Positions 6,188-45,096 of a DNA stretch of 64,000 bases are shown here, one piece after another. The position numbers were made by a program, and so were the translations under genes. Positions within the stretch are counted from its first letter, which is position 1, and each line of letters begins with the position of its first letter. Below the pieces are notes generated by a model, which ran no database searches, was not told where the DNA came from, and worked only from the letters and a program-made list of their open reading frames with translations. The stretch comes from Escherichia phage A73: sequence record OP778609; one strand, given 5' to 3'.

Positions 6188-6408
6188 ACTCTTTCTCCTT
6201 TTTCATCAATAACGATTAATGGCTCAATAACTAAAAGGCGCTGCTTCATAAGACTTTTTATAGTCTCATCGATATCAGATAGAAGAATATCTTTTTGACT
6301 TTCTATCCAATTACGTGCTGCCTTTTCTGAAACAAATGCAATACCTTCTTGACCAATATCCCATTCACAGAATACTTTATACACCATCATCTTCTCCCTT
6401 GTCAACAT
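6184..6408 (-). CDS. hypothetical protein
   Basis: 74-aa ORF; ATGA-type overlap with neighbour. Confidence 0.4.
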   Translation of the reverse strand: MLTREKMMVYKVFCEWDIGQEGIAFVSEKAARNWIESQKDILLSDIDETIKSLMKQRLLVIEPLIVIDEKGERV

Positions 6409-9847: not shown

Positions 9848-9994
9848 CTAGTGGCACGCCCCCCAGTTCATCCCTGTGAGGTATTCACCTGTTATGTGGA
9901 CAGGAGATTTCATCATTCGTGCTGCTTGCTCTACACAACGAACAACCATCTCTCCAACTGGACAATACATGATCGTGTAGATTCCATTCTCATC
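9848..9994 (-). CDS. DNA polymerase A, C-terminal segment (motif C Asp-Glu to C-terminal His)
   Basis: The last 48 aa of track ORF 9848-10198 (DENGIYTIMYCPVGEMVV...GMNWGACH) match the remembered T7 gp5/Pol I C-terminus including the terminal His; continues exon 1, which ends ...YYH. Confidence 0.6.
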   Translation of the reverse strand, partial: DENGIYTIMYCPVGEMVVRCVEQAARMMKSPVHITGEYLTGMNWGACH

Positions 9995-10919
9995 AGGATC
10001 ACACTTAAACTTCCCTTCTTTCACACAATGACCATCCAAGATCATTTTCTTAGCCAAGCAAGCTTCTACAAATTTCTTCGCGTCAGCTTCGTTGTCAAAG
10101 GTCCAGGTCTTCTTGAACTTGTGCGGTACTTCAAGCTGGTATTCATCCAAAAGTTTAACGAGGTCGTTACTCTCGCCCACATCATTACATGTTGCCATAC
10201 GTTTTCACATATGGATCGGACTATATCACCATCCTTTTCAGGATGCTCCCCATTTCGACGGCACTTGCTCGCCTACGCCTCTCGGCTAGTCTCTGAACGT
10301 TAGGACCATGTGTAGTCACAAGAGATGTGTGTCCAGTTTTTACGGATTTTTATGGACCTTACCACGTTGTAAGGATAACCCATATCCCGAATCTGTGCAC
10401 TTCCATAACCTTGCCCCAGGAAGTTGCAAATCTCTCTAACCTCTTCTTCGGTAACTATACTTCTGGCGTTATCAACCCCTGTTGCTGAACGACATTTATC
10501 AGCAAAGGTTTTCTTGATATTTCCACCACGAGTTGTCCATTGGAGGTTTGAATAGTGGTTATTCCTTTTGTCAGGCCACTTATGATCAACCTCCGGCAAA
10601 CCTTCAGGGTTTGGTACAAAACACTCTGCCACCAAAACGTGAACAGCCTTTGTAGTCGTCCTTTTGTTGAGATACAGACTTACAATAAGATACCCACGTC
10701 CATTATCAACTGCCGCCATTGGTTTCCCTCGACGACCTATAATGGTCCCGTCTTCATAAACCTTGTAACCGAAATAATCTTTATATTCCACATGATCCTC
10801 TTCGCTGCTGATTAACATAGTCTCATACTAACTCACACTTGAATTAATATCAACCTTAGTCTTCCAGCAATTAAAGGAGTTTTCGATGTGAGTTACCTCA
10901 CAAAGCCACAATGTTACTT
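9995..10919 (-). mobile_element. intervening sequence splitting the polymerase gene (intron-like or free-standing homing endonuclease cassette)
   Basis: About 925 nt inserted between the His and Asp codons of polymerase motif C; contains an HNH endonuclease ORF. Confidence 0.55.
10300..10818 (-). CDS. HNH homing endonuclease
   Basis: 172 aa; NUMOD4-like N-terminus (YKVYEDGTIIG) and HNH motif (VDHKWPDKRNNHYSNLQW). Confidence 0.8.
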   Translation of the reverse strand: MLISSEEDHVEYKDYFGYKVYEDGTIIGRRGKPMAAVDNGRGYLIVSLYLNKRTTTKAVHVLVAECFVPNPEGLPEVDHKWPDKRNNHYSNLQWTTRGGNIKKTFADKCRSATGVDNARSIVTEEEVREICNFLGQGYGSAQIRDMGYPYNVVRSIKIRKNWTHISCDYTWS

Positions 10920-13250
10920 ATGGTAATAGATAATACGTCTAACGCCTTCATCATACCAACCTTTCTTGACCAACTGCCAGTGCAGGAGGATACCCACCAA
11001 GTCAAACAGTGCAGCACCACCATTCTGCTGATAAGCATTAAGCAATGAGTGTTTGGAACGAGTGTAGATCTTACGTCCATCAAGACCGTAGATGAATCGC
11101 TTACCGTTAGCTTCCCAAAACTTCTCTAATGCTTCTTTACGACCTTTCAAGCCGATGTTGCTATCCCAGAATGCGTCGATTACTGCCTGGGCCTTCTCAA
11201 GAGTGATCCCCAGCATTGATGCAATCTTCGCTGCCTGTGCCCCGTACATAATTCCGTATGTCACACCTTTACCTTCACCACGAGAAACCTTCTTCCCTGC
11301 CGCTTTGGTATACGCTTCTGCGTTTCGGGAGTGAGCATCTCCAGATTCCATGATACGAAGATAAGCACCGCCATCGAAATCATAAGCGCCCCATGCTGCG
11401 ATCATACCTTCTAGGTTTGAACCGTCGATACCTACCTGATATTTACCCTCAGAGGCTCTGAATAGTTCACGCATCTCTTTACCGAGAAGAACTTTCTCAT
11501 CCGGCTTAGGTACGTTTGCTACGATCGTATGCTTACGACGACCTGTGTTAGTTATTCCACTATAACGGGCCGGAAGTTTACCGTCAACTCGTAGACGTGG
11601 ATGGTTAAGCCATCCGGTATCAACCTTCTCTTCTTTCAGCGGGTCAAGAACAGATCGTCGGTTACGTAAAGACAGCCATTTAACAATCTGTTTAGCCATT
11701 TCACCATCTACTCGCTCAAGGTTAGGGCAAAGACCCTGTTGATCCTTAAGTTGTGGAGATGTAGGTAATGCACGAGCTTTCTTACGGAAAAACTTGAACA
11801 TCTTTTCTTTATCTGACCACTGCTTAGGTGTGATCGCCAAGCTTTTCAGAATCAGATCACGATACTCCGTCTGATCCAAATCTTCAATGTATTGACGAAC
11901 AATCAGATCAACTTCACTATCGGGACGTTGTTTCTTGAACTGATCTTTAGTTGCATCCTTTGTACGCCAAATTGTTGGGACCCATCCTGCATCACGGATC
12001 AGGAACTTCTTAACGTCGTCCTGGTTACCAATACGCATCGGAATCATAATGTCCGGCATCTTTTGTTCTTTGATATCCATCAAAGCACGAGCCATATCTT
12101 CCGGCGGCAAAGGAACAAGCCCTTGCTGCTTAACGTTTTGTGCACGGATAAAATCACCCATTTTGGATTCGTCCTCTACACCGTGTTCAACACAATACTT
12201 GATCGCGGCAGCAGTAAGAGATCCGTCAGCCTTAAACGGCTTACTTGGTGCACCTTTAAATTCCAAGGCTTCCCAATTGATATTATAACCTAACTTCTCT
12301 AACCATTTCCAACCTGTACCGGAAAGAGATCCATCACCCTTGAAAGGTTTGGATGGGAATGTCGGTTGTGCTGATTTCGACATCTCTTTCTTCGGCAACT
12401 TAGGTTCAACCTCTAACTCAATGTCAGTCATCATCTTATCGATACGATCACGAAGCTTGAGTGCTTTTTCTTCATCAAATGAAACACCCTGAATTTCTTG
12501 CTCAATCATCAGGTAGTCAGTCAACATACCTCGACGCAGGGCATTCTTCCAGTTGATCATTTTATACTTCTTCTGATCTTTGTCTGTTTCATCCTTAAAC
12601 ATGAAGCGTTTATCATCCGGCATGGATTCACAGGAGATCTCTTTCATCAGAGCATCCCACACCATTTCGTTGATAATTACGTCTTCAATAATACGATCGC
12701 AATACTTCCAAAGTGGAAGGCCACGCCAATCTTCAATCGCCACTTTCTGGTTAGCTACTCGCATACCCCAAGCTTCAAGCCCGTGTGGCCCTACAGGCTT
12801 CATTTTACCTGTGACGGGGTTCTTTACCATCTCAGGACAACCGCGAGGCAGAGGGCGATCTGGATACAATGTACGGGACATTGAAAGTGTATCGAAGATG
12901 GTTACTTGTTTACCATTGATCGTCCCCATGCAACCAGGGTCTGCAAACATATCGTAAGTTGTTCCTAGCATCTTCTTAAACAACTGGAGGTCATAGCCGA
13001 AGATGTTGTGGATAGCAACTGCTTTAGGCTCGGTAACGAACCATTCGTTTAATTCTTCAAGGGTGCGGATCTTGAAGTTTTTACCTTTAGATTGGATAAA
13101 TTTAACAGCTTGATCGTAACCTTCTCGCTGTGGATCAAGAAAGATGTTCCAGTTATCTTTTTTGTACTCTTTAAACAAGATGCAGTGGATTAGATCAACT
13201 TCTGTCAACAGACCATTAGCTTCCGCATCTCCAATAAATAAGCCTTTCAT
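10920..13250 (-). CDS. DNA polymerase A (T7 gp5-like), N-terminal exo domain plus polymerase domain through the His of motif C
   Basis: 3'-5' exo motif GDAEANGL; motif A GIDGSNLEGM; motif B KGVTYGIMYGA; tail GLDGRKIYTRS...NAYQQNGGAALFDL; the ORF stops two codons after the motif C His. Confidence 0.85.
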
Positions 13251-13416
13251 TTTTTCTCCTTCTTTTAAACTCCAACTAGACTAAAACAAAGCCTAGCCGG
13301 AGGTATGACCCTTCGGCTAGGTTATCAAAAGTGTCGGTATCCTTCATCAACAAAATAAAGTATTACCAAGATGGCAAACACGACACCCAAGAATATTAAT
13401 CCTAGTGAAGTTGGCA

Positions 13417-13650
13417 TCAGTCTTCTATTACCTCAAATTCATCATTAAAAGCTACGATAGTTTCACCGTAGCCCATGTTTAATCGGGCAGTTGTAGGTTT
13501 GCCATTCCTAGATAGATAGTACACCCTCGCTTCGTAAATGTCACCAACTTTTACACCGTAAGCCTGTAGGTCTTTGTTATTGATATCTTTATTTTCAGCA
13601 TTGATTATTCGAACACTGCTGATCTCTGAGTATACAGAATTATCTTTCAT
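13417..13650 (-). CDS. hypothetical protein
   Basis: Start set at the internal Met with RBS GAGGA; track ORF 13417-13692. Confidence 0.4.
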   Translation of the reverse strand: MKDNSVYSEISSVRIINAENKDINNKDLQAYGVKVGDIYEARVYYLSRNGKPTTARLNMGYGETIVAFNDEFEVIED

Positions 13651-13940
13651 CAGTATTTTTCCTCTGGACGGAAAACTCCACGGCAAGCCCACATACTTGC
13701 TTCTTTGAGGCGATCTTTAGCCTTAGATAAGCAATCAGATGCAAAAAGCACGGAATCTAGATCCCCTTCGGGAATCGAAGAGTCATTAGCCAGTCGATTA
13801 TATTCCTCAATAATCTCGTCTTCTAATGCTTTTAAAATAAGACCTAAACGAATTTCAGCATCTTTAATGGCATTCACCTTACCGATTTTTTCATCGGTGT
13901 GTGGTTTGTAGCCCTTAATGTCATCAATAGCCATTACCAA
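13650..13940 (-). CDS. hypothetical protein
   Basis: 96-aa ORF. Confidence 0.45.
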   Translation of the reverse strand: MVMAIDDIKGYKPHTDEKIGKVNAIKDAEIRLGLILKALEDEIIEEYNRLANDSSIPEGDLDSVLFASDCLSKAKDRLKEASMWACRGVFRPEEKY

Positions 13941-14422
13941 TCCTCTTCTGTTTGTTCATACTCGGAAGGGGTGATGAAGTAATTCTGCCCCCGCTTGCAC
14001 TGGTTGAAAGTCCCAACATACCAAGTACCGATATCCATGTTGATGAAAGTTTCTTCTTGAACAAAGATCAGATCAGTAAGATTATTGTCTGATCGTTGGG
14101 TCGCTAACAAAATATGCTCAAAATCTGCTAATGTTATGTTGTAACAGAAACCATCTTCGTCCTCCATAACTGCAACAACAGAGCTACGCCCTTGGGTGAA
14201 TTGACGAAACTGTAAACGTAAATGACGATGTTCATGTTCATTCGTCTTCACCTTTTTCCGATTTTCGAAATATTCTTCGGAATAATTTGGATGCTTTAAT
14301 TTCAGCTTTTCGATCTCTTCGGTAGAAAGAGCATCCTTATCCCAACCAGTAAACCATTTACCGTTATCATTAAATACCGCAGGGTATTTACGCTTACTCA
14401 AATCTTTAAACATTTGAATCAT
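13934..14422 (-). CDS. hypothetical protein
   Basis: 162-aa ORF. Confidence 0.5.
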   Translation of the reverse strand: MIQMFKDLSKRKYPAVFNDNGKWFTGWDKDALSTEEIEKLKLKHPNYSEEYFENRKKVKTNEHEHRHLRLQFRQFTQGRSSVVAVMEDEDGFCYNITLADFEHILLATQRSDNNLTDLIFVQEETFINMDIGTWYVGTFNQCKRGQNYFITPSEYEQTEEDW

Positions 14423-14732
14423 CTCCTTCAGCTAGGCTACGAATATACTTGAAAATTTCTTCATGATCATTACCAAATGCAACATATCCCTTTTCAGCAT
14501 CAAGTCCATAATTATGCTCTATTTTCTCTAAAAAGCAATTTCCGTAAGTAATTTTTTCAACCAGGGGATCGGATTCTGAAAAACCCAACCCAAAAGCTTT
14601 CCAGTGCTCACGTTTAAGCTCCACGTATTCCCACGGTTTATCTCCATCGTGGAATAACACAAGGGTGTCTTGATCTTTCTTTTCTACATTGACATGACCA
14701 TAAAATCCACTGGGCGATTTGTTAAATTTCAT
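14406..14732 (-). CDS. hypothetical protein
   Basis: Start set at the internal Met with RBS GGAG; track ORF 14406-14792. Confidence 0.45.
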   Translation of the reverse strand: MKFNKSPSGFYGHVNVEKKDQDTLVLFHDGDKPWEYVELKREHWKAFGLGFSESDPLVEKITYGNCFLEKIEHNYGLDAEKGYVAFGNDHEEIFKYIRSLAEGDDSNV

Positions 14733-15054
14733 AATCTTCTCCGTAAATATCTTTAATTTTTGAACTGAGGTATCCAGGATCGCAGCCATCATACCACACT
14801 TCTACGAAAACCTTTTGGGAATCTTTGATGATCTTTGCCCCGACTCTTTCAATCCCCTTGAAGAAAGATTGTAAGATGTAATCATCTAACACGTTTACTC
14901 CATAAGCATCGTGGAGGGATTTTTCATCGTGAACATACACAACCATCTTACCATCATACGTAACTTGAATGCAAGGGTCATCTTCCCAAGTAATAGCCGG
15001 AGAATCCGGCTCAAGCTTTGCAATAACACCAATAGTCAATCGGTTGTCACTCAC
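14722..15054 (-). CDS. hypothetical protein
   Basis: 110-aa ORF. Confidence 0.45.
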   Translation of the reverse strand: MSDNRLTIGVIAKLEPDSPAITWEDDPCIQVTYDGKMVVYVHDEKSLHDAYGVNVLDDYILQSFFKGIERVGAKIIKDSQKVFVEVWYDGCDPGYLSSKIKDIYGEDYEI

Positions 15055-16268
15055 TCTTTACCCCCTGCGATGCGTAACATTTGGATAGTTTTCTCCAGTT
15101 CTTTACGAGGTTTGGCAACTAAACGACGTTCGTGTCGCTTCAGGAAGCCTTCTAAGAACTCTAACGGTTTAAAGGATAACACTTCCTGTACTGATTCGTC
15201 AACAGCATACTCTTTCTGGACCATACGATAAACCGGATTTTTTACAGTTACAGGAGTATAACCCTTACTGATCGCCATTTGGGTAACAACACGCTTCTTG
15301 CCATCGGTCCATGAGTCATCGATCGGGAAAGAATCTTTACCGTATTTTTCAGAGAATAACTTAACTGCTGTTTTTGTCAAGTCATCCTGATCTTCTTGTG
15401 TTCGACTTTGACCCCAATAATAACCACCAGAGGTCTTAGCACGACGTTCCGAGAACAAAGCAAGGTCATCGTACTGCTCAAGAGCTAAACGCGCCAGAAG
15501 CTCGATATCGTCGCTTTCTGACAGCAGTCGGTTTGCTTCGTACTTAACTTCAAAAGTATTTGCACTATCACGATCACGGTCAAGGGTGAAAGCTTCTGGC
15601 TTGAAGTCGTAATCGAATTTAAAATTACCTGGAACACGAGTAACGAACAGTCCATTTACAAACAGGTTGCAGTCACCGCCTGTGATAGATCCATCCTCTT
15701 CTTCATTTTGGTATTCATCAGCCGCATTGTACAGCTTAGTATAAGCTTTGCCTCGATCATTCTGAATAACGACTGTACGTTCAGTTGTTGGTGCATAGTT
15801 ATCCATAATTTCTGACATAGCGTACTGAGGGATGTTTTCAATGATCACAGTTACAGTATTTGAATCACGGCCCGACAAAGCATTTTCATGGATATCTACA
15901 GCCAAAATGTTCTGTTCGTATGTGGTATCGTAAACCATATTTGGAATCCAAAGATCATTACCATTTTCGATAACGATATCTGCACCTTCACGAACAAGCA
16001 CTAAAAGACCTACTTTCAGACCTTCGCCAAACTTACCGATCTTACTGTCATCATCACGTTTGGTTGAAACACCCATCAAAAGGCCGGAGACAGGAACAAC
16101 GCCACCACGAGAGATGATTGTGATCTTGCCTTGATTACTGTCATCATTGCCAAAATAAATATTGAAATCTTCCGTATCGATAGCGTTTTGCATGAGTTCA
16201 CGAGCACCTTGCCACCATGACCAGTGGCTGACGTAATTTTCAGTGATGCTCAATTTAATCTGTTTCAT
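15051..16268 (-). CDS. GHKL-superfamily ATPase (MutL/MORC/Hsp90-type ATP-binding fold)
   Basis: 405 aa; N-box ELMQNAID and Gly-rich G2-like box GKFGEGLKVG. Confidence 0.6.
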   Translation of the reverse strand: MKQIKLSITENYVSHWSWWQGARELMQNAIDTEDFNIYFGNDDSNQGKITIISRGGVVPVSGLLMGVSTKRDDDSKIGKFGEGLKVGLLVLVREGADIVIENGNDLWIPNMVYDTTYEQNILAVDIHENALSGRDSNTVTVIIENIPQYAMSEIMDNYAPTTERTVVIQNDRGKAYTKLYNAADEYQNEEEDGSITGGDCNLFVNGLFVTRVPGNFKFDYDFKPEAFTLDRDRDSANTFEVKYEANRLLSESDDIELLARLALEQYDDLALFSERRAKTSGGYYWGQSRTQEDQDDLTKTAVKLFSEKYGKDSFPIDDSWTDGKKRVVTQMAISKGYTPVTVKNPVYRMVQKEYAVDESVQEVLSFKPLEFLEGFLKRHERRLVAKPRKELEKTIQMLRIAGGKE

Positions 16269-16280
16269 TTATTTACCCTC

Positions 16281-16997
16281 TTATTTGTTGTATTGATAAA
16301 TTGCTTCAGCTAAACCCCGTGGAGTTAGTGACCGGATCATCTTAGTTCTTGCTGACTTACCTCCCAACTTATTCTGCTGATCTGACCAACCAGGTGCAAC
16401 AGGAACCGGAGAGGTTTTTGGAATTATAAACCCATTTCCTGTCCAAAGTCCAGTCTTTTTCGGATAAGCATCCCGTGGTTTAATGTATTGAGGAAAATAA
16501 GGGTTAACATCATTTACCGGAAGGTAACCACCATATTCCCAAGGGTTAAAATATACAGTAGGTTTTCGCCATTGTCCAGCTAAAACACTTACTGGGTTTT
16601 CAATCATATACGGACAATCGAAAACAAATTCAGCAAGCCAGGCTGCAATCTTCGCAGTTCTTACCGCCTTGATCTGGAAGAAAGGATCTTTTGCTTTCTT
16701 CGATGCAAAGTGACGAGAACCACTAACAGCCATATCGGTACATGGAGGGTAGGCAAGGATCAGGTCCGGCGCAGGCAATCCTAAGTTCTCTACATTCTCC
16801 ATCCATTCAATATCGATAAAGGCGTTAACGTAAGTGATGTTGGGATGAATTTCCTTTACGCCTTCATAATCCCCGTGATCAGCATCATCATAGTTGAAGC
16901 AGTAGCATTTGTGCCCTGCCTTCGCCCAGGGAAGAACATCAATCCCTGAGCCAGAAAAGAGACTCCAGATAATCTTTTTATTCATCGTAGCATCCAT
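16281..16997 (-). CDS. DNA (cytosine-5)-methyltransferase-like protein, minimal
   Basis: 238 aa; motif I LFSGSG, motif IV PPCTDMAVSG (catalytic Pro-Cys), motif VI ENP, motif IX-like RSLTPRG; very short target-recognition region. Confidence 0.65.
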   Translation of the reverse strand: MDATMNKKIIWSLFSGSGIDVLPWAKAGHKCYCFNYDDADHGDYEGVKEIHPNITYVNAFIDIEWMENVENLGLPAPDLILAYPPCTDMAVSGSRHFASKKAKDPFFQIKAVRTAKIAAWLAEFVFDCPYMIENPVSVLAGQWRKPTVYFNPWEYGGYLPVNDVNPYFPQYIKPRDAYPKKTGLWTGNGFIIPKTSPVPVAPGWSDQQNKLGGKSARTKMIRSLTPRGLAEAIYQYNK

Positions 16998-17290
16998 ATA
17001 GTGGTTAATTTACAAATACACCAGAAAATCCCGATCAGTGTAGCAAGAGCAATAACACAAGTCAATGCCATAGGTAAGAATATTGTCATAATCACTGCAA
17101 ATACTGAAATACCTACGCTTGCAATAAGATCCGGTACGAAATAGTGAAATGGTTCTCTGGCCTTTTTAACGTTGTCCCATGTTATCACTACGGAGGTAAT
17201 AGCGAGCCAGAATAAAAAGTACAAAGTGCAAGAAAATAAAGTCATATTTGACTTAATCATATCAAACCACATGTTGTAGAATTCAATCAT
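16982..17290 (-). CDS. small multi-pass membrane protein
   Basis: 102 aa; about three hydrophobic helices. Confidence 0.45.
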   Translation of the reverse strand: MIEFYNMWFDMIKSNMTLFSCTLYFLFWLAITSVVITWDNVKKAREPFHYFVPDLIASVGISVFAVIMTIFLPMALTCVIALATLIGIFWCICKLTTIWMLR

Positions 17291-17610
17291 TCAGTTTTCC
17301 TCGGTACAGATGCAATAACAGCCTTTTCGACGAGACATACAATAAATCTCCCAATCCCTGCCAAAAGGAGAGCAAAGACTGTAAAAGGCAACCCATAAAT
17401 AAGAACTAGGGCCATCAATCCAAAACCAATGGCAAACAGGGTTTCTGTGCCTAGCCACATCTTAGAGTAATTGATATAATTATACCGCAATTTTAAAAAC
17501 AGTCCAGCAATAGAGCCTACAGAAAATATACCAATCAACCAAGGTGCGGTTACAAATGAACGACTGAACCCTTCCCAAAAAACAAAAACATTAATGATTG
17601 CTTCGATCAT
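17287..17610 (-). CDS. small multi-pass membrane protein
   Basis: 107 aa; three to four hydrophobic helices. Confidence 0.45.
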   Translation of the reverse strand: MIEAIINVFVFWEGFSRSFVTAPWLIGIFSVGSIAGLFLKLRYNYINYSKMWLGTETLFAIGFGLMALVLIYGLPFTVFALLLAGIGRFIVCLVEKAVIASVPRKTE

Positions 17611-17861
17611 AAACCATACCTCGCTTCATATAAGAATTCATCAAGATCTTTACTGTCGTCTGAACCTTCTACTGTCAGTGGCATTAGATGTTCTTTAAAA
17701 TAATAGCAAAGATTGCCGGAACTTGTTTCTACTAAACATGTTGTTTTGCAAACCATTTTAACCCTTACCGATAGTCCGGCATCTTCATGGCTGTGGACCA
17801 TTGCAAGGCAACCATCGTAAAGCTTATCCTCATAAGGTAAGCAAGGATCTGGATTTTTCAT
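17607..17861 (-). CDS. hypothetical protein
   Basis: 84-aa ORF. Confidence 0.4.
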   Translation of the reverse strand: MKNPDPCLPYEDKLYDGCLAMVHSHEDAGLSVRVKMVCKTTCLVETSSGNLCYYFKEHLMPLTVEGSDDSKDLDEFLYEARYGL

Positions 17862-18154
17862 TGGGAACTTTCCTCCTCTGCATGTTTACGTACCCAAGCT
17901 ACACGGGCCGGATTGAGGTGTTTCTTAGTGTCTTTATGATATGTATACCGGCCTTTATCAAAAGGGAACTCACAGCACAGTCCAGCGTCGGTAAACTGTT
18001 GTTGCATCTCTTCAGACAAATCAAAATTATAGTCCGGCCAATGGTCCAGTGAGTAACATAACCCCTTACGACGATTAAACGGATCGCGGTCAGGTGCGCC
18101 ATCGTCAAGCCACGCGGCATAGGCTTTATAGAATGCTTTAAGTTGCTCGCTCAT
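17858..18154 (-). CDS. hypothetical protein (paralog of 8146-8523)
   Basis: 98 aa; shared motifs with the 8146-8523 protein. Confidence 0.5.
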   Translation of the reverse strand: MSEQLKAFYKAYAAWLDDGAPDRDPFNRRKGLCYSLDHWPDYNFDLSEEMQQQFTDAGLCCEFPFDKGRYTYHKDTKKHLNPARVAWVRKHAEEESSQ

Positions 18155-18550
18155 TTATTCCTCCTCTGCATATGCAATCTTAGTCATGTAGTCAATACAA
18201 TCATATTGAACATTGTGGCTATTAAAAACAGCCTTGCCTTTGTAAATAACTTCCCAATAATTAATACTTTCAATTTCGGAAAGGTAGGCAACACACTCCC
18301 CCTTCGGATTAATAAGTTCAACCTGCTCAGTTTCTCGTAATTTCCAACCAGTAGGCAACTGAACAACTTGTTCCTTAAAAATCATAATATTGTCACGGTA
18401 ACCCGTTGCCCTTTTAAATGCTCGGAGTAATTCTTTGTATTCACGATATTTCACATAAAGGCCGTCCTCTGATTTTTCCATACGGGCTTCATTGATATTG
18501 CAATTACCATCCATATCTCCAACCAGGTCGTAACGATATACAGGTTTCAT
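18155..18550 (-). CDS. hypothetical protein
   Basis: 131-aa ORF. Confidence 0.5.
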   Translation of the reverse strand: MKPVYRYDLVGDMDGNCNINEARMEKSEDGLYVKYREYKELLRAFKRATGYRDNIMIFKEQVVQLPTGWKLRETEQVELINPKGECVAYLSEIESINYWEVIYKGKAVFNSHNVQYDCIDYMTKIAYAEEE

Positions 18551-18759
18551 TTTTTAACTTTCTCCTTTTTCTCAGGTTTTACATCGCAAACTTTTTGTTG
18601 ATAACTGATCGGTGTTACATAGCGCCACGTCTTTTTAAGGTTCTCAACGAGGATTCGCATTTGTTCCTCATCAGCACCCCAGCCTGCGGTATGTGCTATT
18701 TCATCAACACTCATCTGGCATTTAACGTACCATCTTGTAATTGTCTTCGATTGTATCAT
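18547..18759 (-). CDS. hypothetical protein
   Basis: 70-aa ORF. Confidence 0.4.
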   Translation of the reverse strand: MIQSKTITRWYVKCQMSVDEIAHTAGWGADEEQMRILVENLKKTWRYVTPISYQQKVCDVKPEKKEKVKK

Positions 18760-18786
18760 TATCGTTTCCTTGAGGTCAAGAGATTT

Positions 18787-19083
18787 TTATTTAATACCTA
18801 ATTCTTTTGCACTGTAAATATCATTACCTTCATAGCCTTTGTAGTAGATCAGGATATCTTTGACAATCTCTCCCGTCGGTCCGCTCCGGCGAGTACGTGG
18901 TCGCTGTGCATTGACCAAATAAACTTCACCACGAGTATTTATTTTTGTTGTACGATGGCCTTCGACAAAGGTCAAAGTTGTATATGCAGGAACCTTAACA
19001 AGAACTTCTACCTGGTCACCAGCAGTATTCTGTTGTTCATTTGCCATATCATCTTTAACAACAGTAGTCATAAGTTTGGTCAT
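18787..19083 (-). CDS. hypothetical protein
   Basis: 98-aa ORF. Confidence 0.45.
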   Translation of the reverse strand: MTKLMTTVVKDDMANEQQNTAGDQVEVLVKVPAYTTLTFVEGHRTTKINTRGEVYLVNAQRPRTRRSGPTGEIVKDILIYYKGYEGNDIYSAKELGIK

Positions 19084-19085
19084 TT

Positions 19086-19409
19086 TTATTCTCCTTTGTT
19101 CAGTGTGGATACGAATTCGATATAAGATTCTGCATTTCGTTTATGATAAATCTTAGGGTAACTTTCGGTTACTTTGCTGTATTTGATGTATCGCTCAAAC
19201 ATACCGACGACACCACCAATGGAATGCACAACAACGCCCTCTTCACCAACAAAGGTAACAACCTCTACGAATGGAGTATTATCGTAAGAGCGATTTACAA
19301 TCAGGTCGCCAACTTCAAATTCGATTTTATCATTTTGTGAGTAGTACATTTGTTTTCTCCTTTCTGTTTGGTATGGGAGAAGTATAGGGGAGTTTGATGA
19401 GGGTGTCAA
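19086..19409 (-). CDS. hypothetical protein
   Basis: 107-aa ORF. Confidence 0.45.
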   Translation of the reverse strand: MTPSSNSPILLPYQTERRKQMYYSQNDKIEFEVGDLIVNRSYDNTPFVEVVTFVGEEGVVVHSIGGVVGMFERYIKYSKVTESYPKIYHKRNAESYIEFVSTLNKGE

Positions 19410-19411
19410 TA

Positions 19412-19440
19412 GAAAAAACCGCCCGAAGGCGGTTTATTTT
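19412..19440 (-). terminator. rho-independent terminator (bidirectional-capable)
   Basis: AACCGCCCGAAGGCGGTT hairpin flanked by an A-run and a T-run, just downstream of the primase-helicase stop. Confidence 0.7.
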
Positions 19441-19445
19441 TAGGA

Positions 19446-21491
19446 TCAGAAAGGTGCGTCGTCGTCCCAATCATCCGGCTCTGTGTCCGGCACATCAGGA
19501 ATATCACCTGTGGATTCAACGATACTTTGTTGTTCCCACGTAGGTTCTTCTGAAGGTTGTTCCATTTCTTCCATAACCTTCTTGATCTCTTCCTCTTGCT
19601 CACGCAGGAAGTTATCATCCGGCTCAGGAATATCTTCCTCTTTAATATCTGAACGAGTGAGATCACTGTTTTGTTCAGACAGAGGTTGAATCTCTGCTGC
19701 TTTAGGCTTAAAGTCTGGAGAACGATGATCATCTTCTGGATGAGCGGCATACCACTCACGAAGAGTTTCATAAGGACTCTCTAAGAAGCCCTCTGGCGGT
19801 TCCAGATAATCACCCGTGTCAATGTCATAGAACACAGGGAATTTACCAGCACGACCGTGTTTACGGTCATCCAGAATAACAAAGTAAGAAGTGTTACGTT
19901 GTTTCATCGGGAGTTCTGGATCTTTGTTACGTTCAATACCCCACATGTAATAAGTGTTACGCATCATTGCACGGCTACCAGCAAACTGCGCTGACTGGAC
20001 TTGACCACCAAATTCATGAGGCTTACCAGATTCAGGCTTGTTAAGGTGACAGAAGCAATAATAGGTAAAGCCAAGCTCTTTTGCCAGTTTGGAGATCTCA
20101 TCAGAGAATCGTTCCAGTTCCTGGTTAGCTTCGGAAGCACTCATACCTTGCACAAGACGAGTGATTGGGTCAATAAAGATATCTTCACAACCTTCTACGA
20201 TCACTGCGTGACGGATAGCACCTTTCAGTTCATCCCATACTGCACGACCATAGTTGTTATAATAGATAACACTATCACCAACTTCATCAGTAGCCTTGAT
20301 CAGTTCTTCTTGCTTAAAGTAGCCACGTTGACCTTCAAATACTTCATTACCCCAAATGTCACGGAAAGTTCCATCTTCTTGAGGAATCATTACCTTTTCT
20401 GCGTTAACAAAGTCTTTATGATAACGCTTACCTGCGATCTTTTTACAGGTAATTTCGTTCTCTTCTTCAAACTTAAACACCGCAGCCTTTGACTTCTCAA
20501 TGCCTGTAATGTGTTCTACCATCTGGTTAAGAAGTTCACTCTTACCCATCTTGACCCCAGCCCCGATAAAGTAACCTTCACCTGGGCGACGGCCTAAAGT
20601 AAGCTTGGTCATGGTAGGCCAAGGGAATTTCTTACCAAGTTTAGGGATCTCATGGGCTTTTTCACGGAACTGTGAATAAGTCGAGAAACCATCCGGCACA
20701 TATTCCTTTGGCTTCATTGCAGCCCAAAACAACTGATCAGAAAGTCCTTTGTTATACATGTCGCAAGGGTCCATATCTTCTGGAATGTCCACGACTTTCA
20801 TTTGTGGAATTACAGAGTATACCGCTGCAACTGCATCTTTACCTTTCATGATCCCTTTGGCCTTCTCTGCCTCTGTTGCACGGTCAGCGTCGAAAGCTAC
20901 GATAATCTCTTCAAACTTACTCAGAAGCTTATAGTTATTCTTCTGTGATAAGTTTTGCACGGCATTGGATGTACCGTTAGAGATTGATACTACGGTGAAG
21001 TTAGGTTTACGGGTGGAACCATCCTTCGGTTTGTACTTCTCTGTCAATACCTGCCACAAGATTGCAGCATCATATTCACCTTCAGTGATAAAGATCATAC
21101 GTTTGGAAGACTTATTTGCACCTTCCAGCCCAAACATATCACAAGCCACAGATTGGAAACCAATAGTTGTAAAGTGACCTTTCTGTTGCTTAGGGATCGT
21201 AAGATCACGCTTCTTAAAACCTACAACCTTACCTTCCAATGTGTACGGAAAATAATGTGCTTCTGGAGTCATACCGTCTTTAGCTGACAACTTGGTACGA
21301 ATACCAAATCGTTTAGCTGTCTTTTCGTCGATACCACGCTCAGGGATACTTTTACACGGATAAGTCAATACGTCTTCAACTGTTTCTTCCACACGAGACA
21401 CACCACCACCATAATTACGTGCTACTGAAGCTTTAGGATTTTTATGTCCAAACTTATAACCGCCAAACAGACTTTCGCCAATAGTGCTCAT
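19446..21491 (-). CDS. T7 gp4-like primase-helicase (TOPRIM plus DnaB-like helicase) with acidic C-terminal tail
   Basis: 681 aa; TOPRIM ITEGEYDAAIL and FDADRAT; Walker A GAGVKMGKSE; CHLNKPESGKPHE; long acidic tail ending DDWDDDAPF; no N-terminal Cys4 zinc-binding domain. Confidence 0.85.
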   Translation of the reverse strand: MSTIGESLFGGYKFGHKNPKASVARNYGGGVSRVEETVEDVLTYPCKSIPERGIDEKTAKRFGIRTKLSAKDGMTPEAHYFPYTLEGKVVGFKKRDLTIPKQQKGHFTTIGFQSVACDMFGLEGANKSSKRMIFITEGEYDAAILWQVLTEKYKPKDGSTRKPNFTVVSISNGTSNAVQNLSQKNNYKLLSKFEEIIVAFDADRATEAEKAKGIMKGKDAVAAVYSVIPQMKVVDIPEDMDPCDMYNKGLSDQLFWAAMKPKEYVPDGFSTYSQFREKAHEIPKLGKKFPWPTMTKLTLGRRPGEGYFIGAGVKMGKSELLNQMVEHITGIEKSKAAVFKFEEENEITCKKIAGKRYHKDFVNAEKVMIPQEDGTFRDIWGNEVFEGQRGYFKQEELIKATDEVGDSVIYYNNYGRAVWDELKGAIRHAVIVEGCEDIFIDPITRLVQGMSASEANQELERFSDEISKLAKELGFTYYCFCHLNKPESGKPHEFGGQVQSAQFAGSRAMMRNTYYMWGIERNKDPELPMKQRNTSYFVILDDRKHGRAGKFPVFYDIDTGDYLEPPEGFLESPYETLREWYAAHPEDDHRSPDFKPKAAEIQPLSEQNSDLTRSDIKEEDIPEPDDNFLREQEEEIKKVMEEMEQPSEEPTWEQQSIVESTGDIPDVPDTEPDDWDDDAPF

Positions 21492-39890: not shown

Positions 39891-40065
39891 TTTAAGACTC
39901 TTGCCACCGTGTTACATCCATACTGTTTCATTCCTACATACCCCGCACCACTAGAACAACTAAGCTGATGCCTCGCTTACAGACACATCCTCCAGATTCA
40001 ATACGTTACTGTTCCAGTGTACATACGACACAAAGCAAACATACGACACCAGTGACCAAAATAAT

Positions 40066-40240
40066 TTGAGAACTTGAGGGGTTTTTCATTTTTTAGATCG
40101 TAACCTGAAAGTTGTGAACGAGAACTTGAGAGGTTTTTCGATAGAGAAATTAGGAACTTGAGAGGTTTTTCATTTTTAAGTTTGCATTTGAAATTGAGAA
40201 CTTGAGCTACAGGCCAGATACTTGAGGGGTTTTTCAAATT
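40066..40240 (+). repeat. iteron-like direct repeats (four to five copies of AACTTGAGRGGTTTTTC)
   Basis: Copies near 40068, 40120, 40153 and 40221, partial copy near 40196; one further copy near 31381. Confidence 0.65.
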
Positions 40241-40599
40241 TCAGTTTCATTTCAAAATTTAAAAATTTTTTATATGCACAAAAATATAGGGGTTGTCAAG
40301 GTCTTTGATAAGAAATTTTTCAGGGGGTGAGAATTATTCTCATTTTCAGAATAGCAGGCAGGGGTGGTGATTGCTTCGTGAAACCGTCCTCATCACCATG
40401 AATACATAATATCACCATTCTTGATCCGAAAGCAAGAACATTTTAAAAATATTTTTCGGTAAATTTTGGGCGAGCTACCGGCGATCCACCTTACAACCTG
40501 GCGGCGATGCCTGGTATGTTAGCCCCGCCTTTACGCCGTGGGGATGGCGATTGTTTTCCTATGCAGGTAGTATGGCCCCTGGCGGGGCCGTTGTCAACA

Positions 40600-40884
40600 T
40601 TATTTTTTATTTTCTTGCCAGGAAAGAACGCCTAACCAAAAATGCACGTTGCCCCGAGCGTCCTGCGGTATCTTGCTTTCTTTACCGCCACCACACGCCC
40701 AAAGATAACCATCGGTAAACGTATCAAGGTAGTCCATATCTTCCACCTTTCGATCCGCCAGGTTAAGGATAGTATTAACGTCTAAGCCTGTTGCGCTTGC
40801 TAACTGGTAGACCGTGCCGCCTTGCCAGCCTAACGAGTGCATAAGATGCAAAGTAGTAGTAGTAGCAGTAGTGATGGTAGTCAT
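40600..40884 (-). CDS. hypothetical protein (isolated antisense ORF in a locally GC-rich segment)
   Basis: 94-aa ORF; RBS AAGGG; surrounding 500 bp visibly more GC-rich than flanking sequence. Confidence 0.35.
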   Translation of the reverse strand: MTTITTATTTTLHLMHSLGWQGGTVYQLASATGLDVNTILNLADRKVEDMDYLDTFTDGYLWACGGGKESKIPQDARGNVHFWLGVLSWQENKK

Positions 40885-40998
40885 GGTGTCGCCCTTTCTT
40901 CTGTTGTTGTGCGCCCTGGTTGGCGCGGTAAAAAGACTATAAATGATCTTCCTTTATATGGCAAGGAAAAAGAAAATTAAAAAAGATTGAAAATAATG

Positions 40999-41027
40999 TT
41001 GACGTGGTGAATCTGGTAGCGTAGTAT
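40999..41027 (+). promoter_or_regulatory. sigma70-like promoter (first of the early cluster)
   Basis: TTGACG-N17-TAGTAT followed by a CATCTCATCG leader. Confidence 0.55.
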
Positions 41028-41084
41028 TCATCTCATCGAACGGCGACATGCCAACAAGTAAACAAATAAAAGGGCAACAACAAA

Positions 41085-41270
41085 ATGAATAAAAGAATTA
41101 CAAACGTAAATCCTGGCGAACGTTTCCAACATGAGGGGCATTTGCACACTGTAGTAAGCAACAAAGAGCATACTGTAAGAGTAAATAGAAATATCTTGCA
41201 ACTTCGCGATCGTTTTGGTATCGTACAGACTTACACTTTCGAAGCAAATAAAACAGTTAAAACTTTCTGA
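41085..41270 (+). CDS. hypothetical early protein
   Basis: 61-aa ORF downstream of a promoter. Confidence 0.45.
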   Translation: MNKRITNVNPGERFQHEGHLHTVVSNKEHTVRVNRNILQLRDRFGIVQTYTFEANKTVKTF

Positions 41271-41281
41271 GGATTTTTAAA

Positions 41282-41617
41282 ATGGCACTAGTCACTAAGT
41301 ATTTCATTGAAGGCCAGCAAGCGGCGCAACAAGGTTACAGCCGTGTTACTCGTTATAAGAAAGAAGAAAACAAGATTGAATTTTTCAAGGGTTACGATAG
41401 TGTAAACCGTGATGCAATGGTCCTACGCTTCGAATCCGATCCAGTGGGCAAGCCTGTTACCTCTTACCAGGCATCACCGCAGATTGTTTATGTTGGTACT
41501 GTTAAAGAATGTAACGACAAGTTAATCACTTTGAAGCAGGCCGATCGTGCGGGTTACTTTGTTGTTTACACTGCTGACGGTAAGCCTTACCAGTACGAAA
41601 GCAAATATTTTAAATAA
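41282..41617 (+). CDS. hypothetical early protein
   Basis: 111 aa; RBS GAGGA. Confidence 0.5.
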   Translation: MALVTKYFIEGQQAAQQGYSRVTRYKKEENKIEFFKGYDSVNRDAMVLRFESDPVGKPVTSYQASPQIVYVGTVKECNDKLITLKQADRAGYFVVYTADGKPYQYESKYFK

Positions 41618-41707
41618 AAAGTATTGACAGAAAGAAAGAAGTAAATTAAATTATACCACGTAACGCCGCAATCGTGCGGCAATAAAAACTGATAGGAATT
41701 GAACAAA

Positions 41708-41920
41708 ATGGCTAAAATCATCATTAAAAAATCCCGTGTATCTTCTGTTGCTCGCGTCGAAATGGTAAACACTATGCCAGGTTACCGGACTCGCGAGGAA
41801 GCCCGAAGCGTTGCAAAACAGATTAAAGCCCGTGGCTTAACTGTAAGTGCACCGACCAAAACACAAGAAGGATGGAAGGTATCTATTAAATCCGGTACAC
41901 TGTCAATCAATAAACACTAA
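41708..41920 (+). CDS. hypothetical early protein
   Basis: 70 aa from the ATG (track start is an upstream TTG at 41699); RBS AGGAA; basic protein. Confidence 0.45.
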   Translation: MAKIIIKKSRVSSVARVEMVNTMPGYRTREEARSVAKQIKARGLTVSAPTKTQEGWKVSIKSGTLSINKH

Positions 41921-41983
41921 TAGCCAAAACATTAACGGGGCAACTTTGCCCCTCATTAAATAACATTATCCAGGAGTATTAAC

Positions 41984-42142
41984 ATGACTAGCCAAAACAC
42001 TAACATTGAAAAAATCAACATTACTAAAGAGCGTAAAGCATGGAATGAAACATTAAATCTCAAAGGTAAGAAGCTAAATAAAACTAAACGCGATCGCAGT
42101 ACAAAGCGGGCCTTTTGTGAATTTACAGCGGATCAAGAATGA
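41984..42142 (+). CDS. hypothetical small basic protein
   Basis: 52-aa ORF absent from the track; preceded by GGGGCAACTTTGCCCC hairpin and RBS CAGGAG. Confidence 0.4.
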   Translation: MTSQNTNIEKINITKERKAWNETLNLKGKKLNKTKRDRSTKRAFCEFTADQE

Positions 42143-42438
42143 TGATTAAAGTTATTGCACTTACTACTTTATTGTGTATACCATTTTTGGCGCACGGTAC
42201 TAAGTTTTACGGTGCTAACTTGATAGATTGTAAAGCTCATATGCTGGACCATGAAACAGGCAACAAATTTGTTAAGCCTTTCCAGATCAATCCAGCGGCA
42301 TTTAGTGACGGTGTTTTGTATCAGGAAGGTAAAGCCAGTACGCTGATAATCCATTACGATCCAGCGACAAAGAAAGGTAGCTTATCAATCCAGATTGAAG
42401 GCGCGGAAGAGTTTTCAGGTAAAATAATCTGCAATTAA
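42139..42438 (+). CDS. secreted small protein
   Basis: 99 aa; N-terminal signal peptide (ALTTLLCIPFLAHG). Confidence 0.5.
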   Translation: MMIKVIALTTLLCIPFLAHGTKFYGANLIDCKAHMLDHETGNKFVKPFQINPAAFSDGVLYQEGKASTLIIHYDPATKKGSLSIQIEGAEEFSGKIICN

Positions 42439-42444
42439 TATGTT

Positions 42445-42476
42445 AAGGCCCGCCATTGTGCGGGCCTTTCTTTTAT
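42445..42476 (+). terminator. rho-independent terminator
   Basis: GGCCCGCCATTGTGCGGGCC hairpin plus TTTCTTTTAT. Confidence 0.7.
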
Positions 42477-42498
42477 GAAAATAATTTTGAAAATGTTG

Positions 42499-42526
42499 TT
42501 GACAGCACCGATTAAAAGCGTATAAT
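42499..42526 (+). promoter_or_regulatory. sigma70-like promoter with leader hairpin and no downstream ORF
   Basis: TTGACA-N16-TATAAT; leader hairpin CGGGGAACCAAACAAGTAACTCCCCG near 42541-42566; no ORF before the next promoter. Confidence 0.55.
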
Positions 42527-42616
42527 GTATTACATCAGGACGGGGAACCAAACAAGTAACTCCCCGTTAAGTAGTCCAGGAGTAAGACATACGAAAACCT
42601 CCCCTGATAAAATAGT

Positions 42617-42644
42617 TTGACAATAGTTTTTAGTACTGTATAAT
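42617..42644 (+). promoter_or_regulatory. sigma70-like promoter plus leader hairpin
   Basis: TTGACA-N16-TATAAT; hairpin GGGGAGAATAGTTCTCCCC near 42657-42675. Confidence 0.6.
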
Positions 42645-42695
42645 ACATTACATCAAGGGGAGAATAGTTCTCCCCACATCAAAGGAATCAAAACA

Positions 42696-42923
42696 ATGGC
42701 TATCGTAATCACTCGCGTATCTGGTACAGTTGGCAATGCGGCAGTAGTAGCGGTTATCACTAACAAGAAAGGTGCGGAACTACATTTTGCAATGTATAAC
42801 TGGTCAGTTGATGAGTTTGGTCAGTACGCTAGTGTAGAATACATTGAAACCTATCAAGTGCCGTCGATTAGTTTAACTGATTTGGGCGTTGAGCGTATCC
42901 TTTGCCTGGATGAATTAAATTAA
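42696..42923 (+). CDS. hypothetical early protein
   Basis: 75-aa ORF with promoter, hairpin and RBS. Confidence 0.5.
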   Translation: MAIVITRVSGTVGNAAVVAVITNKKGAELHFAMYNWSVDEFGQYASVEYIETYQVPSISLTDLGVERILCLDELN

Positions 42924-42931
42924 AAAAGTAC

Positions 42932-42959
42932 TTGCAAAGTAAGTCGGATAAAGTATAAT
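42932..42959 (+). promoter_or_regulatory. sigma70-like promoter plus leader hairpin
   Basis: TTGCAA-N16-TATAAT; hairpin GGGGAGAAATGATTCTCCCC. Confidence 0.55.
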
Positions 42960-43008
42960 ACATTACATCAAGGGGAGAAATGATTCTCCCCACTAAAAGG
43001 AAACTAAA

Positions 43009-43152
43009 ATGAAAACTTGTCAGTGTGGTAAAAAGTCTATTACTGGTCTGCGTCGCGGTGTTGCTTTATGCCAGTATCATTACAATAGTCAAGTATGGGG
43101 TAAAACGTGGGCTGACCAGGTTGAAGCAGCAAATAAAGCAAAAAGTAATTGA
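43009..43152 (+). CDS. small zinc-ribbon-like protein
   Basis: 47-aa ORF absent from the track; CQCG ... CQYH; own promoter, hairpin and RBS. Confidence 0.45.
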   Translation: MKTCQCGKKSITGLRRGVALCQYHYNSQVWGKTWADQVEAANKAKSN

Positions 43153-43176
43153 CAGTAAGAAGAAAAAGAGTAAACT
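43149..43176 (+). promoter_or_regulatory. sigma70-like promoter plus leader hairpin
   Basis: TTGACA-N16-TAAACT; hairpin GCGGCAATAGCGCCGC. Confidence 0.55.
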
Positions 43177-43227
43177 GTATTACGTAGAGCGGCAATAGCG
43201 CCGCCACATCAAAGAGAGAGAATCAAA

Positions 43228-43440
43228 ATGGCTAATATCCGCACTGCACTGAAAAATGCAAAACAAGTTTTATTCTCTGACGAGGAAGTATTTAATAAAG
43301 ATATTACAGGCGTTCGAAATCTTAAAGATATCTATGACATTTTCAGTATACGCATGAATATGAAACGTGTTGGAACGTTCGGGAATAAAGTACTGTATCA
43401 GAACGGTGATTATAATTTTACACTGACTATTATTAGTTGA
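43228..43440 (+). CDS. hypothetical early protein
   Basis: 70-aa ORF. Confidence 0.5.
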   Translation: MANIRTALKNAKQVLFSDEEVFNKDITGVRNLKDIYDIFSIRMNMKRVGTFGNKVLYQNGDYNFTLTIIS

Positions 43441-43533
43441 AAGTTTTAGTCTAGCGCTATTGACTTAAACCGATAGTGCTGGCATAATAACTTTTATCAA
43501 GTAGTACAAATCAAACAAAGAGAGAATACAATC

Positions 43534-43773
43534 ATGGCTAATAACAAAACTTTCAACGGTCACAAAAACAAAACTCATTGGAATGTTTCCTTGTGGATTA
43601 ATAACGATGCATCACTGTATCGACTGGCTAATGATTTCATCGCCGCTAACACTAATCGTAACGATGCGGCCCGTCATATGATGTTATTTTTAGAACAAAC
43701 CGGACAACATAAAACACCGGACGGATTCAAGTATAGTACTACTGCAATCCGTGCCGCGATGGTTGGAATGTAA
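43534..43773 (+). CDS. hypothetical early protein
   Basis: 79-aa ORF; promoter-like TTGACT ... CATAAT upstream. Confidence 0.5.
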   Translation: MANNKTFNGHKNKTHWNVSLWINNDASLYRLANDFIAANTNRNDAARHMMLFLEQTGQHKTPDGFKYSTTAIRAAMVGM

Positions 43774-43787
43774 AAAGAAAAAAGTAG

Positions 43788-43816
43788 TTGACACAAACAA
43801 GCAAAACAAGTAAATT
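43788..43816 (+). promoter_or_regulatory. sigma70-like promoter plus leader hairpin
   Basis: TTGACA-N17-TAAATT; hairpin GCGGGGAATGGCCCCGC. Confidence 0.55.
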
Positions 43817-43866
43817 AATCACATCAGGCGGGGAATGGCCCCGCTAAAAGAGAAGAGAGAAATCAA

Positions 43867-44196: not shown

Positions 44197-44210
44197 TATT
44201 AAAAAAGTAG

Positions 44211-44239: not shown

Positions 44240-44294
44240 AATTAACGAATAGGGGGAACATTTCCCCCGTAAACAAAAGAAAGAGAGATTAAAA

Positions 44295-45093: not shown

Positions 45094-45096
45094 CAT

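Follow-up and report, generated by a model that had tools for sequence, protein, structure and literature searches.

Here we present a computational analysis of a 64,000-nucleotide stretch of Escherichia phage A73 (sequence record OP778609; hereafter the window), in which the gene for a small, putative orphan C5-cytosine DNA methyltransferase adjoins the gene for a GHKL-like (Bergerat-fold) protein. We conclude, with a probability of roughly 0.7, that the two are independent genes sharing a tightly packed array of middle genes between the primase/helicase and DNA polymerase genes. Their adjacency reflects how genes are ordered in a single phage clade, rather than a functional unit, and it carries little weight as a module. 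An initial annotation of this DNA had proposed that the two genes, together with two small membrane proteins encoded immediately upstream, could form one epigenetic or DNA-modification module; this proposal is unsupported, the genes being distributed independently of each other. Both are already catalogued phage genes that add no new DNA-modification module, and the GHKL family, with its atypical nucleotide pocket, is the only part that merits follow-up.

The distribution of the two genes was examined at 35 GHKL loci, for each of which up to 8 kb was fetched on either side. No methyltransferase gene lies within 8 kb in 29 of these loci (phiTE and 28 others), about 28 of which are independent once duplicates are set aside (L022 repeats the 4MG region of L003, and L018 equals pEp_SNUABM_01 by length and identity). 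The annotated GHKL contexts of 4MG, Vibrio phage 1.175.O and Pseudomonas phage Ab19 likewise contain no methyltransferase. A methyltransferase gene stands upstream of the GHKL gene only in UPEC06, which belongs to the genus of the source phage, and in three Certrevirus-like genomes. In all, the two genes co-occur at 5 of the 35 loci, with a remnant at one more, and every one of these is from a single clade. Both phiTE and PcCB7V have retained the GHKL gene after losing the methyltransferase: in PcCB7V (L002), a 27-residue remnant of the methyltransferase C terminus (positions 6221–6301, 67% identity) is found directly upstream of the GHKL gene, within an open reading frame annotated as 'N-type ATP pyrophosphatase', indicating that the methyltransferase was deleted in that lineage. 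In phage LNA4, which also carries both, over 100 kb separates one gene from the other.

Seen from the methyltransferase, the two genes are equally separable. Its closest relatives, in a metagenomic Vequintavirinae-like lineage (83% identity) and in Salmonella phage SSBI34 (71% identity), fill the corresponding slot, flanked by primase/helicase and polymerase, and these phages lack a GHKL gene. Of 50,697 phage genomes, 1520 encode a member of the methyltransferase family (about 3% of sequenced phage genomes), against 100 phage genomes for the GHKL family. The divergence of the genes is also discordant. Between the window and the Certrevirus-like genomes, identity is 88–90% for the primase, 80–87% for the polymerase and 70–75% for the GHKL protein, but 45–46% for the methyltransferase, which shares 62% identity with the methyltransferases of Kagunavirus siphoviruses. 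Thus, the methyltransferase behaves as a horizontally exchanged accessory gene, whereas the GHKL gene tracks the replication genes. Scans with Pfam, PHROG and PADLOC found no nuclease or helicase that could serve as the partner in a conflict module.

The region from 13,000 to 19,500 shares 96.8% identity with Escherichia phage W70 and 94–95% with A5-4, A7_1, LTH01 and UPEC06, all of which are Vequintavirinae myoviruses of 137–145 kb, and the window proteins are 99–100% identical to deposited proteins. By sequence, the source phage is a Septuagintavirus-like Escherichia coli myovirus; W70 is the founding isolate of 'Septuagintavirus', a sister genus of Certrevirus (PMC11370258). Just past the primase/helicase gene, a terminator-like hairpin on the minus strand (19435–19416; 8-bp GC-rich stem followed by a T-run) is directly followed by the best sigma-70-like promoter match in the region (19409–19381, minus; TTGACA-17-TATACT, 11 of 12 positions), and this pair (19435–19381) is likely to mark the start of a long gene array. 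From the promoter down to position 13417, about 15 genes abut or overlap (−4 to +27 nucleotides), including all four genes studied here, so that co-transcription is not special to these four.

All four open reading frames listed in the initial annotation are present on the minus strand. The GHKL protein (phrog_6077; 405 amino acids) is encoded at 15051–16268 and the methyltransferase at 16281–16997 (238 amino acids from the first ATG). The second ATG is the start used in the annotation of relatives and gives a protein of 234 amino acids, and a start at 16985 is the probable one. The gap between the methyltransferase stop and the GHKL start is 12 nucleotides, one fewer than first given, and the remaining junctions among the four genes overlap by 4–16 nucleotides.

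The methyltransferase matches phrog_757 ('DNA methyltransferase') over its full length (E = 3e-78). Its match to Pfam PF00145 reaches 20.8 bits, below the gathering score of 22, and covers residues 11–109 only; the match to TIGR00675 in NCBIfam is 15 bits, for a cut-off of 100. Some close homologues have a precomputed PF00145 match. Conservation over 22 homologues bears out motifs I, IV and VI as initially annotated: P84-P85-C86 of motif IV (PPC) and E133-N134-P135 of motif VI (ENP) are invariant, and motif I (FxGSG; F14-x-G16-S17-G18) is invariant or nearly so, as is a long C-terminal block, LGGKSxRTKxIRSLTPRGxAxA. The canonical motif VIII, QxRxR, is absent; candidates for it are the invariant W143-R144 and R175-D-x-Y-x-K180-K. 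Beyond motif VI, the conserved part of the protein extends for only about 85 residues. Where motif X would be expected stand the invariant C-terminal IRSLTPRGLAEAI and a confidently predicted terminal helix (residues 227–237), which together look like a degenerate motif X in the model; the absence of this motif, as first annotated, is doubtful. The C-terminal R-S-x-x-P presumably resembles motif X of DNMT3, which we take as a lead only.

Structure prediction gave a model with a predicted local distance difference test (pLDDT) score of 84 and a predicted template-modelling (pTM) score of 0.85. A Foldseek search of the PDB with this model placed DNMT3B and DNMT3A first (best E = 5.5e-8, probability 1.00, template-modelling (TM) score of about 0.5). 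The top 47 matches comprise DNMT3A/B, MET1, DNMT1, DIM2 and the prophage CP-933R methyltransferase 3g7u, the sole outlier being a pre-60S ribosomal-subunit chain at rank 37. As judged from the predicted structure, the protein has the C5-cytosine methyltransferase (class I Rossmann-like) fold, in keeping with the initial assignment. Sequence comparisons reach less far: the family profile found a weak M.HaeIII match in the PDB (E = 0.24) in which motifs I–IV align, hhalign of the family against E. coli Dcm aligned motif IV alone (E = 0.09), and the alignments to Dcm and M.HaeIII stop short of the motif VIII–X region. Single-sequence searches of the PDB with the window proteins returned nothing useful.

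DNMT3 enzymes have the smallest recognition regions. The phage protein is like DNMT3A and DNMT3B, its best structural matches in the PDB, in combining a C5-methyltransferase domain with what looks like a very small target-recognition region, which agrees with the minimal region described at first. It is unlike them in its low sequence identity (12–18%), in the modest TM score and in the absence of PWWP and ADD domains. Much closer are the orphan phage C5-methyltransferases of PHROG 757 from Drexlerviridae, Dhillonvirus, Kagunavirus, Webervirus and RB49-like phages (55–62% identity), which share the length of about 230 amino acids, the same invariant motifs and the lack of a cognate endonuclease; the protein studied here differs from them only in its setting, a 140-kb Vequintavirinae genome. 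The family comprises more than 2300 protein clusters and spans unrelated groups (Kagunavirus, Dhillonvirus, Drexlerviridae, Webervirus and RB49). In UPEC06, the protein is annotated as 'DNA cytosine methyltransferase', and the Septuagintavirus paper already reports a cytosine methylase, named from an HHpred match to 3ME5 (PMC11370258). It is an already annotated, published and ordinary phage gene.

We propose that the protein acts as an orphan, S-adenosylmethionine (AdoMet)-dependent C5-cytosine DNA methyltransferase of this widespread, horizontally exchanged phage family. By the classical mechanism, the PPC cysteine, Cys86, would attack a flipped-out cytosine at C6, and the ENP glutamate, Glu133, would protonate that base at N3. 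Since the minimal recognition region resembles that of DNMT3, the enzyme is probably dimeric. The likely benefit would be that replicating phage DNA is shielded from some host restriction enzymes, and such an anti-restriction role is the standard, reasonable reading of an orphan C5-methyltransferase. A literature search found no target sequence for this small methyltransferase family, and the target is not deducible from site avoidance, CCWGG and 4-bp palindromes being without strong avoidance in the window. The family is among the commonest genes of Enterobacteriaceae phages, and a defined specificity would aid host-range prediction.

In SSBI34 and metagenomic relatives (L051, L052–L054), a Lar-type restriction-alleviation gene (PF14354) lies about 0.5–1 kb downstream of the methyltransferase gene; a Pfam scan detected no Lar homologue in the window. 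The presence of Lar near the methyltransferase in these GHKL-less phages suggests that the primase–polymerase slot collects anti-restriction accessory genes.

The GHKL protein matches PHROG 6077, a family of unknown function, with E = 7e-126. It has no Pfam match at E ≤ 0.1, and an NCBIfam scan gave nothing above threshold. At the level of the family, HATPase_c_3 is matched weakly by 12 of 31 members and above threshold by relatives of about 1100 amino acids (53–59 bits for a cut-off of 25). On its own, neither the GHKL protein nor the methyltransferase of the window passes a Pfam gathering threshold. Against the PDB, the family profile weakly matched TopoVI-B (E = 0.04) and MORC2 (E = 0.1) from the N box to the G2 box. 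Sub-threshold matches were to the sacsin N-terminal domain in NCBIfam and to TmtA in PADLOC; the PADLOC matches are marginal (TmtA E = 2e-4, DruM E = 2.5e-3) and we claim no membership of a defence system.

Structure prediction and fold search support a Bergerat fold for residues ~1–235 of the model. In this comparison, TRAP1/Hsp90 scored 9.9, the ATPase domains of viral, phage and human type II topoisomerases (topo II) 9.5–9.1, MORC2 9.0 and MutL 8.6. The last ~170 residues (~238–405) make up an alpha/beta domain that is specific to the family. In a search of predicted viral structures, the protein's own family is followed by dozens of rIIA proteins as the best matches (E = 1e-8 to 1e-7). The initial description of a 'MutL/MORC/Hsp90 type' stands at superfamily level; no S5 transducer domain of the MutL/MORC kind was detected, the protein is without Toprim, CW or Hsp90 middle and C-terminal domains and has no Pfam HSP90 match, and the nearest named viral fold is that of rIIA. 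The protein has the N box (ExxxNxxD) and the G2 box (GxxGxG) in common with GHKL proteins of the MORC, MutL, Hsp90, type II topoisomerase and sacsin types, and differs from the MORC/MutL/Hsp90 group in the replacement, across its family, of the G1-box Asp by Ser, Asn or Thr, in its unique ~170-residue C-terminal domain and in an R-D-R motif.

The family is large and was seen in phage or phage-like contexts. It numbers 6686 clusters at a cut-off of E ≤ 1e-3 and 1807 at one of E ≤ 1e-30; most members have 350–400 amino acids and are matched over their full length. The phages that carry it include Certrevirus, Seunavirus, 147-kb Klebsiella and Erwinia phages, Pseudomonas Abidjanvirus and Vibrio phages of 44–51 kb and 130–140 kb, whereas the many Vequintavirus genomes lack it. 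A homologue listed as 'bacterial', from Sphingobacterium, is encoded on a contig that looks like a phage. A literature search for characterised phage GHKL proteins of this kind returned only a generic statement on rIIA. A function for this conserved family would fill a recurrent gap in phage annotation and would extend the GHKL superfamily by a non-canonical branch.

Some relatives depart from the common architecture. In metagenomic relatives of 940–1120 amino acids (P0185–P0190, P0200, P0202, P0206 and P0212), each polypeptide contains three stretches that match the family profile; these recall the repeated regions of sacsin, and Pfam matches were found in up to two regions. In Pectobacterium phage CB7 (KY514263.1, 46485–47814), the GHKL match falls into two pieces with an HNH endonuclease annotated beneath, and the gene appears, by sequence, to be interrupted; the match is likewise in two pieces in POP18 and in Vibrio phage 1.187.O. 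On this reading, the family would be interrupted by an HNH gene in at least one phage. Because homing endonucleases often target conserved genes, the HNH gene in CB7 is a hint, and no proof, that the GHKL gene is important.

The N box ELMQNAID (residues 24–31) and the G2 box GKFGEGLKVG (residues 78–87) are present as first annotated, and the family keeps the key residues of both without variation. In a set of 31 sequences, E24, N28 and D31 are invariant. An alignment of 132 sequences has D31 in every row and E24 and N28 in 131, the remaining row having a gap; in the G2 box, no row departs from G78, E82 or G83, and 127 of 132 have G81. G66, K70, K85, G206 and R231-D232-R233 are invariant or have one gap or substitution at most, the last being the R-D-R motif directly after the GHKL domain.

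The G1 box, by contrast with the canonical DxGxG, has S53 at the position of the Asp, which, by sequence, corrects the motif picture of the initial annotation. In characterised GHKL enzymes, this Asp contacts N6 of the adenine. Across the 132 members, the position is occupied by Ser in 62, Asn in 50, Thr in 17, Ala in 2 and Asp in 1. The register is supported by hidden Markov model (HMM) alignments, which place the Asp of TopoVI-B and of MORC2 opposite the Ser, and by the model, in which the strand formed by residues 49–53 terminates at residue 53. In the 31-sequence set, DxGxG is kept only by two remote members, P0058 and P0059. These two also have a C-terminal HExxH metallopeptidase-like motif, and in Pseudomonas phage Ab19 a small open reading frame annotated as 'metallopeptidase' lies directly upstream of the GHKL gene.

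The GHKL gene usually lies among replication, repair or nucleotide-metabolism genes: its neighbours are a helicase and a dUTPase in a Vibrio phage, a ligase and an exonuclease in Ab19, a glycosylase of the Fpg/Nei type together with a phosphatase of the PNKP type in a metagenomic phage, and the primase and polymerase in the window. No universal neighbour was found across 30 loci, and only a protein of 50–110 amino acids recurs. In the window, this protein (18547–18759, minus; 70 amino acids) is encoded in the same array, about 2 kb upstream of the GHKL gene, whereas in Seunavirus, Erwinia and Raoultella phages the gene for its homologue comes immediately after the GHKL gene, at a distance of 0–3 nucleotides.

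We suggest that the GHKL protein is a nucleotide-dependent, dimerizing clamp or switch that would act on DNA or on a host factor in replication or repair and would work without need for the methylase. With Ser in place of the Asp that binds adenine, its nucleotide pocket is atypical. A clamp or switch of this kind is the most economical reading of the protein, and an rIIA-like role in counter-defence is the main alternative.

Several points weigh against this picture of two independent genes with these roles. Within the Septuagintavirus/Certrevirus clade, a methyltransferase gene lies upstream of the GHKL gene in four of six loci and a fifth has the remnant, so a lineage-specific functional interaction of the two products is possible there. 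With regard to the methyltransferase, the BASEL study found phage adenine and cytosine methyltransferases to be abundant, with no simple link to restriction resistance, and Vequintavirinae to be unusually sensitive to restriction–modification systems (PMC8594841); given the lack of a simple link, the protective value of the methyltransferase is an assumption. As for the GHKL protein, S53 raises the possibility that it may not hydrolyse ATP at all.

One variant takes the loss of the Asp as its starting point. The GHKL family has replaced this residue systematically, and would bind a nucleotide other than ATP or bind its nucleotide in a new mode, with a function in replication and repair or of the rIIA type and possibly with a clade-specific methylase partnership. 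We hold this version as tentative, and on balance unlikely.

A role as a short rIIA-like counter-defence factor that, as T4 rIIA does, would shield the infection from an abortive-infection system of the host or of a prophage, perhaps at the membrane with the small membrane proteins, is improbable in our view. It draws on the rIIA proteins that lead the viral fold matches outside the family, on an alignment of T4 rIIA across the region from N box to G2 box, on weak similarities to TmtA of Tiamat and to a domain of the sacsin type, and on the absence of an rIIA-sized open reading frame from the window. rIIA itself is described as having an N-terminal GHKL ATPase domain and a variable C-terminal domain, and as part of a poorly understood counter-defence system (PMC7824862). 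The GHKL protein resembles T4 rIIA in this combination of a phage GHKL N-terminal domain with a variable C-terminal region, but what the two share, though real at the level of the fold, goes no further than the generic GHKL core (hhalign probability 5%, 92 columns). Moreover, the protein is about half as long (405 against ~700–800 amino acids), no rIIB gene adjoins it, and T4 rIIA retains the G1 Asp (DFGPG), which the GHKL family does not. In Seunavirus, SSE121 has rIIA and rIIB and its congener 4MG has the short GHKL protein, which makes a replacement of one by the other improbable, and the membrane proteins are not conserved beside the GHKL gene. Membership of the rIIA family itself was rejected on the grounds of size, the lack of rIIB and the core-only hhalign match to T4 rIIA.

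With the adenine-contacting Asp lost, the GHKL protein could also be a catalytically dead or non-ATP-binding scaffold, or bind another ligand. In Hsp90 and GyrB, an Asp-to-Asn change at the G1 position abolishes ATP binding, the model and the HMM alignments agree on the register of S53, and the residues tallied above show the replacement to be nearly universal in the family. Set against this is the (near) invariance of E24, N28, D31, G78, G81, E82, G83, K70, K85 and the R-D-R motif, conservation that is hard to explain without nucleotide chemistry. We therefore give this possibility little credence, and continue to prefer a nucleotide-dependent clamp or switch.

The proposal of a single module made up of the methyltransferase and the GHKL protein, whether or not the membrane proteins belong to it, is most unlikely. 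In such a module, either the two would resemble a MORC/paraMORC-linked restriction–modification system or an ATP-driven clamp would load or regulate the minimal methylase. Prokaryotic GHKL ATPases of the MORC/paraMORC type are reportedly linked to restriction–modification systems, as Iyer, Abhiman and Aravind are said to have described in 2008, and the A73 locus is like these systems in that a gene for a GHKL-fold protein adjoins a DNA methylase gene. The same idea is favoured by the 12-nucleotide gap and predicted co-transcription, by the conserved order in Septuagintavirus and the three Certrevirus-like genomes, by a methyltransferase almost devoid of a target-recognition domain and by the resemblance of the GHKL protein to MORC2 and MutL. 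However, no endonuclease, helicase or S5 transducer domain was detected at the locus, which lies in the replication operon of a lytic phage and not in a defence island and has an adjacency that is limited to one clade and repeatedly broken. The 29 of 35 GHKL loci that lack a methyltransferase, the far wider occurrence of the methyltransferase, the relatives that fill the same slot without a GHKL gene, the two losses, the separation in LNA4 and the discordant divergence all argue in the same direction, and we retain the reading of independent genes within a shared array.

An Hsp90/HtpG-like chaperone for phage proteins, as suggested by the GenBank annotation of the PcCB7V homologue as 'chaperon protein htpG', is extremely unlikely, since topo II, MORC and MutL score nearly as high and the match is thus to the common GHKL core only, the Hsp90-specific domains are missing, and the gene lies in a replication/repair module and not in a morphogenesis module.

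The two small proteins encoded upstream, which were initially described as multi-pass membrane proteins, are consistent with that description, with ~3 predicted hydrophobic spans each. The 102-amino-acid protein (16982–17290, minus) has Kyte–Doolittle hydrophobic spans at residues 16–38 and 49–101 and no Pfam or PHROG match. The 107-amino-acid protein (17287–17610, minus) has spans at residues 19–41 and 52–102 and matches phrog_15955 (E = 3e-8), a family of unknown function. In both, an N-terminal span and a C-terminal hydrophobic stretch of ~50 residues fit about three membrane helices. A paralogous relationship between the two was rejected (BLASTP E = 3.5). Among the fetched loci, homologues of both were found only in UPEC06, and by sequence they are accessory genes of this lineage, for which no link to the methyltransferase or the GHKL protein could be shown.

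Elsewhere in the window, the DNA polymerase gene (9851–13250, minus) is split, with residues 1–777 encoded at 13250–10920 and residues 778–876 at 10147–9851. The 772-bp insert that separates them is absent from UPEC06 and contains an open reading frame for an HNH endonuclease (10300–10818; phrog_59, E = 1e-33); the insert could be an intron or else a homing-endonuclease gene inserted as a free-standing unit. The related metagenomic phages L052 and L053 have the same 779-amino-acid polymerase followed by an HNH gene.

The window also displays strong avoidance of GC-rich 6-bp palindromes. Of the 64 palindromic hexamers, 25 never occur, for 3.4 zero counts expected under a maximal-order Markov model; those missing include GGATCC, CTGCAG, GGTACC, TCCGGA, GGCGCC, CCATGG, GTCGAC and CTCGAG. 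The avoidance is strong for GC-rich palindromes, whereas the AT-rich GAATTC, AAGCTT and GATATC are not depleted, and neither are the GC-rich GTGCAC and CGATCG. CCWGG occurs at 0.89 of expectation and non-palindromic hexamers have no deficit. From these counts, site avoidance, rather than methylation, looks like the main defence of the phage against type II restriction.

Finally, a block on the plus strand at ~40000–55000 contains about 35 open reading frames of 70–139 amino acids over ~15 kb, separated by gaps of 80–300 bp. It has no open reading frame of 150 amino acids or more and no tRNAs, its AT skew is positive, and it looks like a block of early genes.

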